IMG/VR virus record: IMGVR_UViG_3300029305_003246
Span: 32,001 to 96,000 of that record
Length of the DNA stretch: 64,000 nucleotides
Source: a virus
Lineage: Duplodnaviria; Caudoviricetes
Strand: one strand, 5' to 3'
Under the pieces are notes generated by a model. That model did no database searches and had not been told where the DNA came from. It saw only the letters and a list, made by a program, of their open reading frames with translations. The translations under genes were made by a program, and so were the position numbers. Positions 15,830-36,582 of the stretch are shown one piece after another (the stretch's first letter is position 1; each line of letters starts with the position of its first letter).

Positions 15830-16156
15830 ATGAATGATATAAAAAAGGGTGATATACTATTTGTAAACTTTGGTGAGCAAGAAGGTAGTGTCCAAAAGGG
15901 AAAAAGATATGCTATAGTAGTGAGCAATAATGTAGGTAATAAATACAGCACGACTATAATGGTAGTACCAACCACGACTAAGAAGAAAGCTAATCTCCCT
16001 ACACATTTTAATACTACTATTGAAAGGGATAGCACTATACTATGTGAGAATATAATGACTATATCTAAAGACCAAGTCATTAGGAAGTATAATACTTTAA
16101 GCAATGACGATATTAAGAAGCTTAATCATTGCTTAAAGGTAGCGATGACTTTATAA
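15830..16156 (+). CDS. PemK/MazF family endoribonuclease, no adjacent antitoxin
   Basis: KGDILFVNFG..GSVQKGKRYAIVVSNNVGNKYSTTIMVVPTT, S.ILCE.I.TISK. Confidence 0.88.
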   Translation: MNDIKKGDILFVNFGEQEGSVQKGKRYAIVVSNNVGNKYSTTIMVVPTTTKKKANLPTHFNTTIERDSTILCENIMTISKDQVIRKYNTLSNDDIKKLNHCLKVAMTL

Positions 16157-16276
16157 AATAAAGTCATCCCCAAGTACATAGCCCTATGAGTCTAATAACA
16201 TAAATACATAGGGCATATAATATAATAAAGTTATTCAAGAGATAGCTTAACAAATTAAAGTTGGAGGTAATTAAAT

Positions 16277-23286: not shown

Positions 23287-23517
23287 ATGAAAGCAAAATT
23301 AATAAAAGAACTACACGAGATAGGGGTATATAGAGACTTAGTTACTAAAAGAAAATTAGAATGTATGAAGGTAGCAGAATTATTAAACCTAAAAGCATTC
23401 GTTGAAGAGGAAAAAGCTAGAGGAGTAGTATTCGCTAGAAAGCAAGAAGAATATATCTTTGTTAAGCCAGTTACTAAGCAAGAAAAAATAGCTAATAAAG
23501 GTAAAAAGAAAAGATAA
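23287..23517 (+). CDS. Basic protein resembling Fur-regulated basic protein FbpA family
   Basis: LIKELHEIGVYRD...KLE.M...EL pattern. Confidence 0.45.
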   Translation: MKAKLIKELHEIGVYRDLVTKRKLECMKVAELLNLKAFVEEEKARGVVFARKQEEYIFVKPVTKQEKIANKGKKKR

Positions 23518-23559
23518 TCAAGCCCTTCTCATCGAGTTGGCGATGACGAGTCTTGATTT

Positions 23560-23602
23560 TAAAACACCTCTCCTAGAGTCGACTGGGACGGGTGTTTTAT
23601 TT
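23560..23602 (+). terminator. Long hairpin terminator, preceded by a second hairpin at 23516-23558
   Basis: taaaacacc...ggtgtttta. Confidence 0.6.
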
Positions 23603-23621
23603 ATGTAAAGGAGGTAATATT

Positions 23622-24008
23622 ATGCAATACGACCCACATAATTCGTATGAATATAATGGTAACTTATTCACGAAATATTTCTTAATCGAGCTTTATGTCC
23701 TAGACCATTTAGGTCGACCATATAATCCTTGTGGAAGTGATTACACGATACTGTATGACGACTTAAAGACCTTGACGGGAGTTCTTAATAGGTTAAAAAG
23801 GCTCACACCTTTCGATAAGATGCCGATGGAGGTAATCGGATTTAAAATATTCTCTTATACTAACATCTATAATAGAGATGATTATACTAAATATGTAGAT
23901 ACTATAGAACCTTTTAACCGATACGATAATATATATGGCTCTATACTAAAAGCCCAATATGAGCATTATAAAAAAGGACAATGGAAAATTTCTGAAGAAA
24001 AATTATAA
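23622..24008 (+). CDS. Hypothetical protein
   Basis: Start moved to ATG behind AAGGAGG. Confidence 0.7.
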   Translation: MQYDPHNSYEYNGNLFTKYFLIELYVLDHLGRPYNPCGSDYTILYDDLKTLTGVLNRLKRLTPFDKMPMEVIGFKIFSYTNIYNRDDYTKYVDTIEPFNRYDNIYGSILKAQYEHYKKGQWKISEEKL

Positions 24009-24049
24009 AAATTAGTAATCATTTCAAGATATAATCGTATAATAGAAGT

Positions 24050-24200
24050 ATAAGAAGGTTAATTAAATAAGTAATCAAGTTTAGGTAGGACTTCAAGTCA
24101 AGTCCATAGATTTCCTCTAGGGTGTATGATTACTTATTACCTTCTTAAGTTGAAGGCGACCTACTTGTCTAGGTCAGAGATTACCCTAGAGGACGTAAGA
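24050..24200 (+). ncRNA. Candidate pseudoknotted small RNA with its own promoter
   Basis: Promoter A at 24015-24043 and no ORF before the next promoter; stems taagaaggt/accttctta and ataagtaatca/tgattacttat; 11-bp tcctctagggt/accctagagga crossing pair. Confidence 0.6.
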
Positions 24201-24292
24201 AAAAAAGTTCAAAAGTTGGTATCAAATTTAAGATATCAACGTATAATAAGAGTATAGAAGTTAAAAATTAAATATTTCAGGAGGTAAACCCT

Positions 24293-24685
24293 ATGAAAAC
24301 TATAGTTGAATTAAAAAATGATATGATGGAAGTATTCGAACCTATGACTAAGGAAGAAGTTGAAATGTTATGTGGTGACGACTTCGGTAAGTTATTAACT
24401 ATAGAAGCAAATACTACTTACCTTGAAAATGAAAGAGTTATAGTAGTTGCCGATGGTACTTTCTACAACTTAAATAGAAACGATTTTAATAAGTTCAGAA
24501 TAAATACTCTTGAAGGTAGATGTTTCACTTATACTGATTATAAAATGCACAATAATCTAGATGACGCTTTCGAATTCTTAGGTTCTGCAGGTGAAAATGT
24601 AGTTGTAATAACTAGAAATTTATTCCAAGATGAAGATGGCGATTTTACTGAATTAGTTTACTACACTACTACACTTGAGGGATAA
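24293..24685 (+). CDS. Acidic hypothetical protein (paralog of 25082..25480)
   Basis: Shared LENER, YNLNR.DF..FRIN..EGR and VVITRN.FQDEDGDFT. Confidence 0.8.
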   Translation: MKTIVELKNDMMEVFEPMTKEEVEMLCGDDFGKLLTIEANTTYLENERVIVVADGTFYNLNRNDFNKFRINTLEGRCFTYTDYKMHNNLDDAFEFLGSAGENVVVITRNLFQDEDGDFTELVYYTTTLEG

Positions 24686-24735
24686 ATAAATGAAATAATT
24701 AGTTCACTTTTAAGTAGCTAAAACGTATATAATAT

Positions 24736-25035
24736 TATAGGGCAGGGTGGTCGATTTAGATTCACCCGTAAGTCCCACCTAATAGATAGTACACACGAAG
24801 CCTATACCATCCTCGAGTTGATGAGGGTGGCAAGCTGAATAAGGGTGTGGCATATAAAGTGGGCAGGGAGTCGATTTAGATTTACCCGTAAGTCCCACAC
24901 ATAATTGATAGTACCTTCCACGCCTATGCATCGCACGCGGAACAGGGAGAAGGTCGATAGATTTTGGATAGTATGGGATAGCCGATTTAGGTAAGTCCCA
25001 TCATAAGGGTGGAGCCGATTTAGGTGTACCACCCG
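24736..25035 (+). ncRNA. GC-rich repeat-structured RNA candidate with recurring C-GAUUUA-G hairpin loops
   Basis: CGATTTAG at 24752, 24872, 24983, 25016 (variant CGATAG at 24955), each closing a stem; promoter at 24702-24733. Confidence 0.65.
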
Positions 25036-25081
25036 TACATATTACAAGTTAATATGAATTTATTTTAGGAGGTAAGTCCTT

Positions 25082-25480
25082 ATGAAAAATATAGTTGATT
25101 TAAGAAATGATATGTATGAAGTATTTGAACCTATAACTATGGAAGATTATTATAATCTAAATGTTAAAGACCTTGGAGCTTTAGTTACAGTTGAAACTAA
25201 TGCAGGAAAATCTTTCCTTGAAAATGAAAGATTAGTAGTTATGGTAGGTAATAAAACTTATAATCTTAATAGGGATGATTTTACTCACTTTAGAATAAAT
25301 GCTTGTGAAGGTAGATACTTTACTTATACAGGGCATAAGTTGTTCAAAACTTTATTTGATGCCGTTCAATACGGGGAAGTTCTTAGAAATGAAGTTGTTG
25401 TTATAACTAGAAATATCTTCCAAGATGAAGATGGTGATTTTACTGATGTTTGGTATTGTGCTTGTACTTTAGAAGCTTAA
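25082..25480 (+). CDS. Acidic hypothetical protein (paralog of 24293..24685)
   Basis: Colinear similarity over full length. Confidence 0.8.
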   Translation: MKNIVDLRNDMYEVFEPITMEDYYNLNVKDLGALVTVETNAGKSFLENERLVVMVGNKTYNLNRDDFTHFRINACEGRYFTYTGHKLFKTLFDAVQYGEVLRNEVVVITRNIFQDEDGDFTDVWYCACTLEA

Positions 25481-25557
25481 TCTCAAGTAAATAAAACGGG
25501 TTGAGAAACTATCAACTCGTACCTTTAATAAAATATATTATATGGAGGTAAGCCCTT

Positions 25558-25977
25558 ATGGAAAATAAAACTATATTTGAATGTTTAAAAGAAGCTTGTT
25601 CACGCTCTACTCTAAATATGTTAGATATTAACCCAAATTATTTCTTTGGTGAAGTTGTACCTTACCCAATTCCATTCGACGATGGCGATATACTTGATTA
25701 TATAAGTTCTTTAACTGATGGATTTATGGAATCTGAATATAAGATGGTTCTTTATAACGGCACAGTAACTAAGCTAGATATTGATATGCAGGATTGTATG
25801 ATTGATACTGAGGATATCGAATGTTATCCTTTAGCGATATTAGAGTCTTATGAAGAAATGGTTCGCTTATGTTATAGCCAAGGTCAAAAGGACTTCGTCT
25901 ACTTAATATCTAAAGATTACGACGCTAATGATGATACTACAACTTATAGCCTATCTAGATTATTAAAGATAAAATAG
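25558..25977 (+). CDS. Acidic hypothetical protein
   Basis: RBS GGAGG; similar size and possibly distant relative of the two preceding paralogs. Confidence 0.7.
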   Translation: MENKTIFECLKEACSRSTLNMLDINPNYFFGEVVPYPIPFDDGDILDYISSLTDGFMESEYKMVLYNGTVTKLDIDMQDCMIDTEDIECYPLAILESYEEMVRLCYSQGQKDFVYLISKDYDANDDTTTYSLSRLLKIK

Positions 25978-25997
25978 AAGCCCTTCAGGGGCTTTTT
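25978..25997 (+). terminator. Rho-independent terminator
   Basis: aagccc-ttca(g)-gggctt plus T run. Confidence 0.7.
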
Positions 25998-26077
25998 ATT
26001 TTACTCAAATTTACATAGTTCATCATTCCCACTTCTTTCGTTTAGTATACCAATAAAATAAAAAAGGAGTGAATCTT

Positions 26078-26671
26078 ATGAACCTAGATATTGAGTTTCT
26101 TTATCACGATATGATGAAATATATTACTTACTTTAAAGCTAAATACCCATCTATACCACTAGATGATTTAGAGGACGAACTAAGATGGAGCTTTTTTAAG
26201 ACGTATAGAGTATTTGATGAATCCAAAGGTGTCTTATTCAAAACTTTGTTCTTTAATATAGCTAATAATGGATGCAAATGCATTTTGAGGTATCGTTCTA
26301 ATAGGAAGGGATTACTAGATGCCAAGTCTTTAGATTATATTAATGACGAAGGTGATACGTTCTCCGAATATTATGATTATATGATAGTTACTAATAATGG
26401 TGATGAGGATAGACTCTTAAGTATTAATATATTAGAGTCTTTAGCTAAATTCACCGAGACATTACCACGAAGTCAAAAAAGAGTTATGGAGTTGTATCTA
26501 GCAGGTTATTCAAATGGAGAAATAAGCGATATGTTAAATCTACAGCATAACAACGTGAGCACGCAAAAGGCCAGTGTCTTGAAGAAGTTTGTTAAGCAGT
26601 ACAAGGATGAGTTCCCTATGCTTAGAGAACATAGAACTTCCAGAAATATAATAAATAGATTAGAAAAGTAA
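26078..26671 (+). CDS. RNA polymerase sigma-70 family factor
   Basis: DDLEDELRWSFFKTYRVFDESKGVLFKTLF (region 2); LPRSQKRVMELYLAGYSNGEISDMLN (region 4). Confidence 0.85.
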   Translation: MNLDIEFLYHDMMKYITYFKAKYPSIPLDDLEDELRWSFFKTYRVFDESKGVLFKTLFFNIANNGCKCILRYRSNRKGLLDAKSLDYINDEGDTFSEYYDYMIVTNNGDEDRLLSINILESLAKFTETLPRSQKRVMELYLAGYSNGEISDMLNLQHNNVSTQKASVLKKFVKQYKDEFPMLREHRTSRNIINRLEK

Positions 26672-26687
26672 TTAGGAGGAAAATACT

Positions 26688-26966
26688 ATGATGAAAAAAT
26701 TAGAAGCTTTAATGAAGGAAAATAAAAGGGTATACTTAGAGGTAAATGATAATCAAGTTGTCATCCACGTCAAAACTAAAGGAAGAGACTTTGGACGTAT
26801 AAAAGGTTATAAACCAGTTGAAGTTGTTACTAGCCCTATTGAAATAGATGAGCTTGTTAACATATTAAGAAATAATTACTTAGTAAACTACCTTGAAAAA
26901 GGAAGTAATATATTATTGATAAGAAATTTTAAAAATATGGTATCTTTTCAAGAAAATAACGTATAA
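26688..26966 (+). CDS. Hypothetical protein
   Basis: RBS AGGAGG. Confidence 0.65.
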   Translation: MMKKLEALMKENKRVYLEVNDNQVVIHVKTKGRDFGRIKGYKPVEVVTSPIEIDELVNILRNNYLVNYLEKGSNILLIRNFKNMVSFQENNV

Positions 26967-34215: not shown

Positions 34216-36582
34216 ATGAGTAGCCATCGACAAATAAAAATAACTTTCGGCAATACTGAATTTTTCGTTGATTCTATTCAAGAAGCTATTGAAAAAACGG
34301 GTTGCTCAAAAACTAGCATAAGAAATTGTCTTAATGGGGATACGAAGTCTTGTAAGGGTTATTGTTTTAAGTATGCCCAAGTTAAGCCAACCGATGTAAT
34401 AGCTAAAGGACAAAAAGATTCTGCACAAGAAGTAAATCAAAATCGTAAATGTAAGAAAATAAAAGTAACAGATACTAGCACTGGACAATTCAGAATAAGT
34501 CCATCACGTACCAAATTGGCCGAGGAATGGGAAGTAAGTTCCTCTTATATAAATAAACTAATAAAAAATAAAACTCTTTACAAAGGCAAATTTCTAGTGG
34601 AACATTACTCTATCGAGGACGAAGAGGAAGTGCATTTTAAAAGAGCCGAGGAGGCAATATCTAAAGTTCAAGATGACGATATACGTTCTAAACTAGCAGG
34701 ATTATTATCTCAAGTAAGATATGATAAATTCGAGGCAGTTAAACCTCGACAAATAAGGGAAGTTTTGCCTTTCAAACAATGGATAAATGATACCTACTAC
34801 TCAGGACCCGATGCTCTTAACCTATACCCATATTGGAAAAATAAACTGAGTGAGGTATTCGATACTGATAAGAATATTACTGAATTTGTTTTAGCAGGTT
34901 CTATAGGTACGGGGAAGACGACTGCATCTTTATATGGTCTTATGTATAAATTATATATGTTATCTTGTTATGAAAATACAGCAGGTTTGTTCAATCTGAT
35001 GGTTACTTCTAAAATAGCCATAATGTATTTTACTATAAACTTAAAACAAGCCGAAAAATTAGGATATGGACAACTAAAAAATATGATAGATAATACTCAA
35101 TATTTTACTGACCATTTCCCACGTGTACAAAGGATAATCACGAAATTAATATTCCCAGAGAACGTTGAAATTACTTATGGTTCAAACTCAAACCATGCGA
35201 TAGGTCTTAACCTTATAGCATCGCTACTAGACGAAGCCAACTTCTTTAACGAGTCATCGGCTACTGACGAAAGAACTGTCAGTGCAGTTTATCAATTATA
35301 TTCTTCTATAGTAGCAAGGGGACGTTCGAGATACCTTCACAACGGGTGGAACCATTCACTTTGTTTCCTAGTATCTTCATCAACTCACGTTGGCTCATTT
35401 ACGGAAAAACGTATAGCCGAAGGACGTAAGAATAATTTTGCGAATATGGTAGTGGCAGCACCTAGATTATGGGACGTTAAGCCTAAAGGGACTTACTCCG
35501 ATGATAGATTCTATGTATTCGGAGGGAATGATGCGATTGACCCATTTATAGTAACTAATATAAAAGACCTTAATACAGTTAGAGGTGCATTACTTCTAGA
35601 AACTTATCCTATAGATAAAGACGTTGAAGAAGCATGTCTAGAAACTATAGCCGAATTAAAAGACGAGTTAATTATACCCGTACCAACTGACTTTAGAAAA
35701 GACTTTGAAAATGATATAATAAAAGCCTTACAAGATATAGCAGGTTATTCTACTTCACCAAGTGGATATCTATTCTCAAGTAGGCCGACATATAATAAAT
35801 GTGTTAATTTAAACTATGTCCATCCATTCGTAAAAGACGAAATAGAAATTTCTACTAATGACGATACTCAACTTTGGGATTATCTAATAAAGGGTTATAG
35901 ATTTGAAGATATCCAAGCACCTCACTTCGTATCAGTTGACGCCAGTACGAAAAACGACTCTACAGGAATAGCGATGTGTCATCTTAAATCTATAGAGTAT
36001 GATAGATTTGGTAATGCTAAACCTATTATAATGATAGATTTTATGCTTAGAATTACTCCACCTTTAAAACCTTACGAAATAGATATCTCTAAAATTAGGG
36101 AATTTATTCGCTATTTAAGGGACGAATATAATATTCGTATAGATGGAGTTTCCTATGACCAATATGCTAGTACCGAGTCTTTACAGTTATTAAGACAACA
36201 AGGATTTAATGCGATACAGCAATCTGTAATTCGAAGCGATATACCTCATAAAGATTTCGTACATTTAATCCAAGAGCAACGTTTAATAACTTATAAGTAC
36301 AAACCATTCGAAAGTGAATTATTTAATATGATGCACGATAGGATTAAGCATAAAGTTACTATAGCACCAGGTACTACTGAATATCATGGGGATACTTATA
36401 TGGCGACTATAGGTTGTGTTATGCATCTAACAAGTGTAATCGATTCATTACCTTTAACAACTGAAAACTTAACTGTAGGTGAAGATGAATATGAAGATAT
36501 TCGTACTCTAGACGCAGATGATATGTTAGAAAACTTAATGGATAACCTAATCGAAGATGATGACGATGATTTCGAATGGTAG
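34216..36582 (+). CDS. terL: Terminase large subunit with N-terminal NUMOD1-like DNA-binding repeats
   Basis: Walker A AGSIGTGKT, Walker B LLDEANF, nuclease VSVDASTKNDSTG, YDQYAS; directly upstream of portal. Confidence 0.9.
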   Translation: MSSHRQIKITFGNTEFFVDSIQEAIEKTGCSKTSIRNCLNGDTKSCKGYCFKYAQVKPTDVIAKGQKDSAQEVNQNRKCKKIKVTDTSTGQFRISPSRTKLAEEWEVSSSYINKLIKNKTLYKGKFLVEHYSIEDEEEVHFKRAEEAISKVQDDDIRSKLAGLLSQVRYDKFEAVKPRQIREVLPFKQWINDTYYSGPDALNLYPYWKNKLSEVFDTDKNITEFVLAGSIGTGKTTASLYGLMYKLYMLSCYENTAGLFNLMVTSKIAIMYFTINLKQAEKLGYGQLKNMIDNTQYFTDHFPRVQRIITKLIFPENVEITYGSNSNHAIGLNLIASLLDEANFFNESSATDERTVSAVYQLYSSIVARGRSRYLHNGWNHSLCFLVSSSTHVGSFTEKRIAEGRKNNFANMVVAAPRLWDVKPKGTYSDDRFYVFGGNDAIDPFIVTNIKDLNTVRGALLLETYPIDKDVEEACLETIAELKDELIIPVPTDFRKDFENDIIKALQDIAGYSTSPSGYLFSSRPTYNKCVNLNYVHPFVKDEIEISTNDDTQLWDYLIKGYRFEDIQAPHFVSVDASTKNDSTGIAMCHLKSIEYDRFGNAKPIIMIDFMLRITPPLKPYEIDISKIREFIRYLRDEYNIRIDGVSYDQYASTESLQLLRQQGFNAIQQSVIRSDIPHKDFVHLIQEQRLITYKYKPFESELFNMMHDRIKHKVTIAPGTTEYHGDTYMATIGCVMHLTSVIDSLPLTTENLTVGEDEYEDIRTLDADDMLENLMDNLIEDDDDDFEW

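Follow-up and report, generated by a model that had tools for sequence, protein, structure and literature searches.

A candidate structured RNA with two duplicated hairpins, carried by a promoter cassette in the hyper-variable early region of an uncultivated phage

Few structured RNAs of phages are understood, among them the phi29 prohead RNA (pRNA), the RNA anti-CRISPRs and the pseudo-antitoxins, and each of these has shown a new role for RNA in assembly or in counter-defence. Protein-titrating and mimic RNAs of phages sit in accessory early or anti-defence regions. Sponges of the CsrB/RsmZ type, Racr RNAs and pseudo-ToxI are promoter-driven non-coding RNAs that present repeated hairpin units. 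RNase III sites and 5' stabilisers, such as the T7 R sites and SP82 early RNA, comprise an interrupted helix of ~20 bp within an early polycistronic transcript, or a structure at the extreme 5' end. Substrates of bacterial RNase III have the size of a bulged 21-bp helix, and a topology of a double helix plus hairpins is common among small ribozymes. The pRNA of phi29 is made from an early promoter, and combines a bulged end-to-end helix with two loops that share four complementary, non-palindromic nucleotides. Finally, in T4-type phages, shuffling of promoter cassettes (PeSL) has been described, in which the indels that separate related phages are flanked by copies of an early-promoter motif (PMC2839356).

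Here, a locus is described that shares features with each of these systems. It lies in an uncultivated IMG/VR phage (record IMGVR_UViG_3300029305_003246; 135,413 bp with direct terminal repeats), of which bases 32001-96000 were analysed. This stretch of 64,000 nucleotides is called the window, and positions are counted from its first letter. The genome has a G+C content of 31%, and a rough gene call places 165 of 166 predicted genes on the + strand. Its 788-aa large terminase (34216-36582) shares no more than 32% identity with the terminases of 50,697 GenBank phage records; judged by this identity, the phage is an uncultivated lineage without a cultured close relative. The strong, near-perfect AGGAGG ribosome-binding sites of its genes suggest a low-G+C Gram-positive host. 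One relative from JGI metagenomes, contig L009, has the same gene order, with genes 67-97% identical at the nucleotide level. The RNA locus is placed in the early, hyper-variable region of the phage genome.

The best explanation overall, with a probability of roughly 0.5, is a selected, structured early RNA that forms the cargo of a promoter cassette and displays two hairpins, acting as a decoy or scaffold, or as a leader. That the stretch is a selected RNA structure seems slightly better than an even bet. The features of the locus are as follows.

24015-24043, + strand: promoter A, with -35 box GTAATC (24015-20), a 17-nt spacer and -10 box TATAAT (24038-43); predicted start near A24050.
24051-24059, + strand: 5' strand of predicted helix P1, UAAGAAGGU, 9 bp with 24139-24147; belongs to the conserved promoter leader and starts 1-4 nt from the predicted 5' end.
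24060-24065, + strand: one-sided bulge UAAUUA, 6 nt and self-complementary, between P1 and P2.
24066-24077, + strand: 5' strand of predicted helix P2, 12 nt, pairing with 24127-24138; a perfect inverted repeat.
24078-24112, + strand: module 1, 35 nt, made up of a 10-nt flank, hairpin H1 and a 7-nt flank.
24088-24093 / 24100-24105, + strand: hairpin H1, 6 bp, loop CAAGUC.
24113-24123, + strand: 5' strand of the candidate crossing helix PK, UCCUCUAGGGU; a perfect inverted repeat with 24183-24193, duplex -19.4 kcal/mol.
24127-24147, + strand: 3' strands of P2 (24127-38) and P1 (24139-47), contiguous; contains the anti-Shine-Dalgarno-like UUACCUUCU.
24148-24182, + strand: module 2, 35 nt, a direct repeat of module 1 (22/35 identical), carrying H2.
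24158-24163 / 24170-24175, + strand: hairpin H2, which can reach 6 bp, loop CUUGUC.
24183-24193, + strand: 3' strand of the candidate crossing helix PK, ACCCUAGAGGA, pairing with 24113-24123.
24194-24217, + strand: A-rich unstructured tail without a terminator; a possible 3' end if the RNA were released by processing.
24218-24247, + strand: promoter B, with -35 box GGTATC (24218-23) and -10 box TATAAT (24242-47); normal short leader to gene 24293-24685.

The gene-free stretch of ~145 bases behind promoter A holds five perfect helices of 9, 12, 11, 6 and 6 bp that have no nucleotide in common, and all 44 base pairs are intact and Watson-Crick. P1 and P2 together make a 21-bp clamp helix, the sole interruption of which is the one-sided bulge UAAUUA. 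The layout is pseudo-symmetric and runs clamp strand, module, crossing strand, GUA, clamp strand, module, crossing strand. With the clamp as S1 and the crossing helix (11 bp, 6/11 G-C) as S2, the strands follow in the order S1 5', S2 5', S1 3', S2 3', which is that of an H-type pseudoknot, without shared nucleotides. On the continuous side, 3 nt lie between the strands of the two helices. As in H-type pseudoknots with coaxial stems, such a linker permits end-to-end stacking, and the clamp and crossing helix can, as their pairing is read, stack into a quasi-continuous helix of ~32 bp. The knot also appears sterically plausible, with 17 unpaired nucleotides in each 35-nt loop to span its helix. 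In contrast to H-type pseudoknots, the stems, at 21 bp with a bulge and at 11 bp, are of unusual length, both loops are 35 nt, each with a hairpin and mutually homologous, and the fold is read from sequence alone.

These complementarities had been listed in a first-pass annotation of the DNA, and all of them are present, with two corrections: P2 has 12 bp rather than 11, and H2 can reach 6 bp. The perfect match that it placed between an 11-mer and approximately 24183-24193 proves to be an exact 11 bp at 24183-24193, in pseudoknot strand order. A nested fold with the clamp and hairpins has an energy of -32.2 kcal/mol, a fold with the 11-bp helix and hairpins -30.2 kcal/mol, and the best nested fold -40.6 kcal/mol. 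For the knotted form, a rough estimate that adds the clamp to the 11-bp helix under a knot penalty of 9.6 kcal/mol comes to ~ -46 kcal/mol, which would favour it over the nested form. The chance that the crossing helix forms is put a little short of even.

The locus is the most self-complementary of its genome. Its five best non-overlapping perfect stems sum to -53.7 kcal/mol, compared with -11.6 +/- 6.0 kcal/mol in dinucleotide shuffles, none of 1000 of which reach it. Among 5411 sliding 147-nt windows over the 135,413-bp genome (mean -8.5, sd 5.6), it takes rank 1, and the next stands at -40.0. The self-complementarity of the segment is thus a genome-wide extreme. The runner-up by this perfect-stem statistic, at 16076-16222 (-40.0 kcal/mol), lies directly downstream of a MazF-like gene. 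Ordinary nested minimum-free-energy z-scores are modest (-2.2, -2.6 and -3.2), because a nested fold can take just one of the two long-range helices, and the choice of the nested model between clamp and 11-bp helix switches with the flanks included. In a genome so rich in A+T, chance yields perfect 11-mers with long loops about every 6-7 kb, but these are A+T-rich and isolated, whereas the G+C-rich 11-mer here interleaves with the 21-bp helix. The RNA body has a G+C content of 41% in a 31% genome, within the top 2.5% of windows.

Since the helices are purely Watson-Crick, the minus strand folds at least as well as the + strand (z -4.8 vs -2.6), and folding is silent on which strand is active and on whether RNA or DNA is concerned. 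The + strand is provisionally assigned to the RNA, solely from the orientation of the promoter and the genes.

The two modules are diverged direct repeats, with 22 of 35 positions identical (63%), a level that shuffles attain once in 300. Both are built alike, from 10 nt, an 18-nt hairpin and 7 nt, and they are spaced 70 nt apart. Between the stems of H1 and H2, three of six pairs have changed on both sides, with no mismatches. When the 13 observed differences are placed at random, a test that assumes both modules to be diverged copies, all six pairs are kept in 0.34% of trials, and are kept with at least three double changes in 0.01%. This internal covariation argues for selected pairing within a single strand. 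Moreover, two palindromes with different half-sites are unlike the target of one DNA-binding dimer, which would likewise favour a single-stranded fold. The internal loops of the modules were also considered as a K-turn, and the required tandem G-A pairs are missing.

Promoter A belongs to a + strand promoter family of at least 10 copies with a common motif of ~45 nt (GGTATC-N17-TATAAT-AGAAGTATAA; window 17635-38706), each copy lying 30-65 nt upstream of a AGGAGGTAAnCCCTATG start region. The unusual -35 box and the conserved transcribed start may indicate a sigma factor of the phage's own, for example the product of gene 26069-26671. At every other promoter of the family, a strong ribosome-binding site follows after 30-65 nt; behind promoter A alone, the ~170 nt up to promoter B contain none. 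The segment directly behind it had been described as ORF-free, and this is borne out. The sole + strand ORF of at least 25 aa (24126-24257, 43 aa) has no Shine-Dalgarno sequence, although phage genes carry a near-perfect AGGAGG; its ATG is buried in P2, it crosses promoter B, and neither Pfam and PHROGs nor sequence searches gave a homologue. A 9-bp hairpin (GUUGGUAUC / GAUAUCAAC, one G-U pair) at 24214-24239 covers the -35 box and spacer of promoter B, and is absent in promoter A.

On the + strand between 23588 and 25976, including beside promoters A and B, there is no terminator-like site. Consequently, transcripts from promoter A should read on into gene 24293-24685. The idea of a stand-alone RNA of ~150 nt finds no support, as neither a terminator nor another 3'-end signal precedes promoter B. 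Without a terminator, the structure would be the 5' leader of the downstream gene, and this leads to the strongest rival explanation, a cis-acting one. In it, the 21-bp clamp at the 5' end would shield transcripts of promoter A against 5'-end-dependent decay, or would form an RNase III site, and would tune gene 24293-24685 alongside the unstructured promoter-B transcript. The clamp begins within 4 nt of the predicted 5' end, and its 9 + 12 bp with a 6-nt bulge correspond to the ~two turns of mostly regular double-stranded RNA expected of an RNase III site. Its 3' arm, with UUACCUUCU, complements the AGGAGGUAA ribosome-binding sites of the phage itself, and ribosome-binding-site-dependent stabilisation of phage SP82 mRNA (reviewed in PMC7509114) supports the same reading. 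In addition, the orthologous promoter in L009 drives the downstream gene family directly. However, a stabiliser or RNase III site needs neither covarying duplicated hairpins nor a second helix of 11 bp, features that set the locus apart from the T7 R sites and SP82 early RNA, as does its position between two promoters rather than between two genes. Promoter B intervenes before the gene and gives it a normal short leader, and nothing similar is seen in other members of the promoter family. A purely cis-acting leader is thus judged unlikely, if still a serious contender.

Comparison with L009 bears on both the promoter and its cargo. Promoter A and the start of its leader (window 24006-24070) are identical to L009 at 59 of 65 positions (91%), which places the promoter under constraint; it is conserved and probably functional. 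After the leader, L009 passes straight into the ribosome-binding site and start of gene 24293 (29/30), and from there on matches the paralogue at 25082 in its body (100/103 at the junction). It is without block 24071-24270, which comprises the RNA body and promoter B, and without block 24301-25089, which comprises the first paralogue and the next promoter with its non-coding stretch. The breaks in homology (24070/24271 and 24300/25090) fall within repeated stretches of promoter, leader and gene start. Across L009:1-1754, aligned with window 23949-26700, there is a single hybrid gene, with a start like that of 24293 and a body like that of 25082. Recombination between the paralogues and between the promoter leaders thus made or removed ~1 kb. 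As L009 is without the element, the RNA is accessory and dispensable for the phage lineage and, on this comparison, is the accessory cargo of one promoter cassette. The borders of the indels with L009 resemble PeSL shuffling (PMC2839356), in that a repeated early-promoter motif bounds them and the RNA would be the cargo of one unit. Unlike PeSL cassettes, those here are without the stem-loop terminator half, and in place of an ORF the cargo is a non-coding structure.

The same indels raise the alternative that the element is a functionless by-product of recombination among repeated promoter-leader cassettes, with young inverted and direct leader copies that are still perfect. Its absence from L009, together with indel borders in repeated promoter, leader and gene-start sequences, would fit such an origin. 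One arm of the clamp is the conserved leader itself, and the other is antisense to it, with 12 nt forming the exact antisense of another family leader, so that the clamp could have begun as an inverted leader copy. Positions 24065-24077, moreover, repeat the -35 context of promoter A. Nevertheless, the order X, L, Y, rc(X), L', rc(Y) would need at least three independent events, and no single rearrangement yields it. The direct repeats are 37% diverged, yet all of the base pairs are intact, three of them compensated. The rank of the locus as the genome-wide extreme of self-complementarity and the G+C enrichment of its body also stand against an accidental origin, which is considered improbable.

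An intron- or transposon-like reading was considered as well, since 24113-24147 splints both flanks and the modules resemble the subterminal hairpins of IS200/605-type elements. It was rejected: the splint is the pseudoknot restated, group I and II introns are far larger than 105 nt, the homology with L009 breaks off at 24070/24271 and not at the module ends (24078/24182), and the hairpins differ at three pairs.

Searches for relatives yielded no homologue of the RNA, so that covariation support is confined to the duplicated hairpins. Rfam gave no relevant match at gathering score for the whole window, nor at E up to 10 for 23500-25600, with models of ribozymes, phi29 pRNA (RF00044), riboswitches, and 6S and Y RNAs among the negatives; ARAGORN found no tRNA or tmRNA. 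In the GenBank phage collection, megablast gave no match, and blastn just 30-nt chance matches. In IMG/VR, there was no match for the exact 11-mer pair, for the pattern of positions common to both modules, or for either flanking protein, the sigma factor or the protein-family profiles. As to targets in trans, no complementarity longer than 12 nt was found elsewhere in the phage genome, which is about chance level. The first-pass annotation had recognised no ribozyme consensus, in agreement with the Rfam result, and had offered a ribozyme or an antitoxin-like RNA as examples of what the element could be. Neither suggestion is supported, as no Rfam ribozyme model matched even at E up to 10, and no neighbour is toxin-like. 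The self-cleaving families concerned are hammerhead, twister, twister-sister, pistol, hatchet, HDV-like, hairpin, VS and glmS; for HDV-like ribozymes, the helix order here also differs from their nested double pseudoknot. Readings as a 6S-like RNA, a Y-RNA-like RNA or a riboswitch are without Rfam support. A type III toxin-antitoxin RNA (ToxI-like) would call for tandem, near-identical repeats, then a terminator and an endoribonuclease gene of the ToxN/AbiQ type; here there are two repeats at 63% identity and 70-nt spacing, no terminator, and a downstream 130-aa protein without a Pfam or PHROGs family.

The loops of H1 and H2 differ at just two positions, which are those that make them complementary. 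Kissing between them had been proposed over five nucleotides. Complementary loops do exist, but the match is 4 nt, CAAG (24094-97) with CUUG (24164-67), and extends to 5 nt only with the top pair of H2 opened. Two random 6-nt loops of local composition show 4-nt complementarity in 3.9% of trials. If CAAG of H1 and CUUG of H2 paired between molecules, the RNA could assemble into dimers or rings like the phi29 prohead RNA. Assembly of pRNA is driven by four pairs, 45AACC48 with 82GGUU85 (PMC7357161), the same number as here, and the end-to-end bulged helix with two hairpins recalls its architecture. On the other hand, neither a sequence match nor, at E up to 10, a hit of the Rfam pRNA model was obtained, the loop complementarity is expected by chance at ~4%, and one hairpin lies outside the end-to-end helix. 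The phage is also not a phi29-like podovirus: its genome of 135 kb has direct terminal repeats and encodes a conventional large terminase, no link to a connector, an ATPase or other packaging gene is seen, and the locus is dispensable in L009. A pRNA-like role is, overall, very unlikely.

With two 35-nt hairpin repeats around a 35-nt spacer directly behind a promoter, the locus also has the geometry of a CRISPR-repeat mimic (Racr) or a mini-array. In each repeat, the hairpin is followed by 7-8 nt, as in Cas6-type repeats, with promoter A immediately upstream; the neighbours are without a Cas-like Pfam match. The repeats, however, are just 63% identical, and nothing in CRISPR systems corresponds to a 'spacer' that pairs with the flanks of its own RNA. 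A strict module pattern (16 fixed and 2 two-fold positions), searched in one genome per species across 185,579 species, gave 55 single matches, which is the chance number. None of these was array-like or on a multi-copy contig, and none kept more than 4 of 6 stem pairs; the search brought up no CRISPR repeat or host RNA that could be the original. Compared with CsrB/RsmZ sponges, Racr and pseudo-ToxI, there are no GGA loops, no CRISPR-repeat resemblance was found, no toxin gene lies nearby, and the two units, only two in number, are locked by long-range helices. This reading is very unlikely. Equally unlikely is that the locus is a small self-cleaving ribozyme of a new kind, a gene for a 43-aa protein or a site acting at the DNA level (origin or operator): a compact double helix with hairpins, an ATG-initiated 43-codon frame and inverted repeats that can serve as protein-binding sites speak for these in turn, and the Rfam ribozyme result, the shortcomings of the frame given above and hairpin palindromes with differing half-sites speak against them. 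The pRNA-like, Racr-like, ribozyme, peptide and DNA-site readings are thus each given a few per cent.

Genes 24293-24685 and 25082-25480 encode paralogous acidic proteins of 130-132 aa, and the family of the 130-aa downstream protein has six representatives among 1.8 billion proteins. Public contigs encode relatives of this protein: P0002, P0008 and P0009 (87% identity for the representative P0002) on contigs of up to 8,174 bp, P0003 on one of 145,575 bp, P0004 and P0010 on JGI contigs of 7.6-9.1 kb, and P0005 on one of 99,970 bp. No family (Pfam, PHROGs) and no clear fold match was found for the neighbouring proteins. For the product of 24293-24685, an AlphaFold2 model (mean pLDDT 91) matched nothing at E <= 0.001 in Foldseek searches of PDB and BFVD. 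A wide VIA-align search gave a best Z of 5.0, with GyrI-like and eIF4E-like rows at Z 3-3.5, below the meaningful level. The next promoter cassette (24702-25060) holds an ORF-free stretch of ~330 nt with a G+C content of 47%, upstream of the paralogue at 25082. This stretch contains four hairpins with the same GAUUUA loop, each followed by a GUAAGUCC-like sequence, and its motif had one chance match in IMG/VR, inside coding DNA. Positions 24081-24093 of the RNA are 12/13 complementary to 24770-24782 in this stretch.

For the preferred reading, that of a selected structured early RNA, the following course can be proposed. Transcription from promoter A, as we infer, would begin near 24050, and the first nucleotides of the transcript would pair with 24127-24147 to form the clamp, with its 9 + 12 bp and UAAUUA bulge. 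The 11 nucleotides just 5' of the clamp's 3' arm could then pair with 24183-24193, extending it across the 3-nt linker to the helix of ~32 bp. Each of the 35-nt connecting segments would bear one copy of the duplicated hairpin module, and the whole might be a compact, nuclease-resistant scaffold that presents two related hairpins in a fixed geometry. Its likeliest purpose would be to bind and titrate a dimeric host or phage protein early in infection. In the absence of a terminator, the RNA would be the 5' domain of a transcript that runs into gene 24293-24685, and might either stay as a leader or be freed by processing in the A-rich tail. Such a display or decoy role is favoured because covarying modules and a second long-range helix would be superfluous for a mere stabiliser, and because the region is accessory, early and hyper-variable, with an adjacent cassette that shows four hairpins with identical loops. 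In itself, this specific role is nonetheless speculative, and is considered unlikely.

From the earlier description of a compact, tertiary-folded RNA, the self-complementarity, the strand order of a pseudoknot, a favourable if rough energy and the covarying hairpins are retained; the ribozyme, stand-alone or antitoxin-like character that it suggested finds no support. A bolder, and distinctly doubtful, possibility is that the locus represents a new class of phage early non-coding RNA. Such an RNA would be a pseudo-two-fold, pseudoknot-clamped scaffold with two covarying, possibly kissing hairpins that binds a dimeric host defence or RNA-binding protein, or that self-assembles, and it would be the sole cargo of a mobile promoter cassette beside a four-hairpin RNA cassette.

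Several points make the locus a clean candidate: no other 147-nt window of its genome is as self-complementary, it has internal compensatory changes and a conserved early promoter, it is absent from a close relative, and its neighbours are another repeat-hairpin RNA and a very small family of orphan proteins. Should it lack a function, it serves as a warning that cassette recombination could yield statistically extreme 'structures'. If it is functional, it would offer a compact natural pseudoknot scaffold for structural study, and would mean that RNA genes, and not ORFs alone, are moved about by promoter cassettes in the hyper-variable regions of phages.
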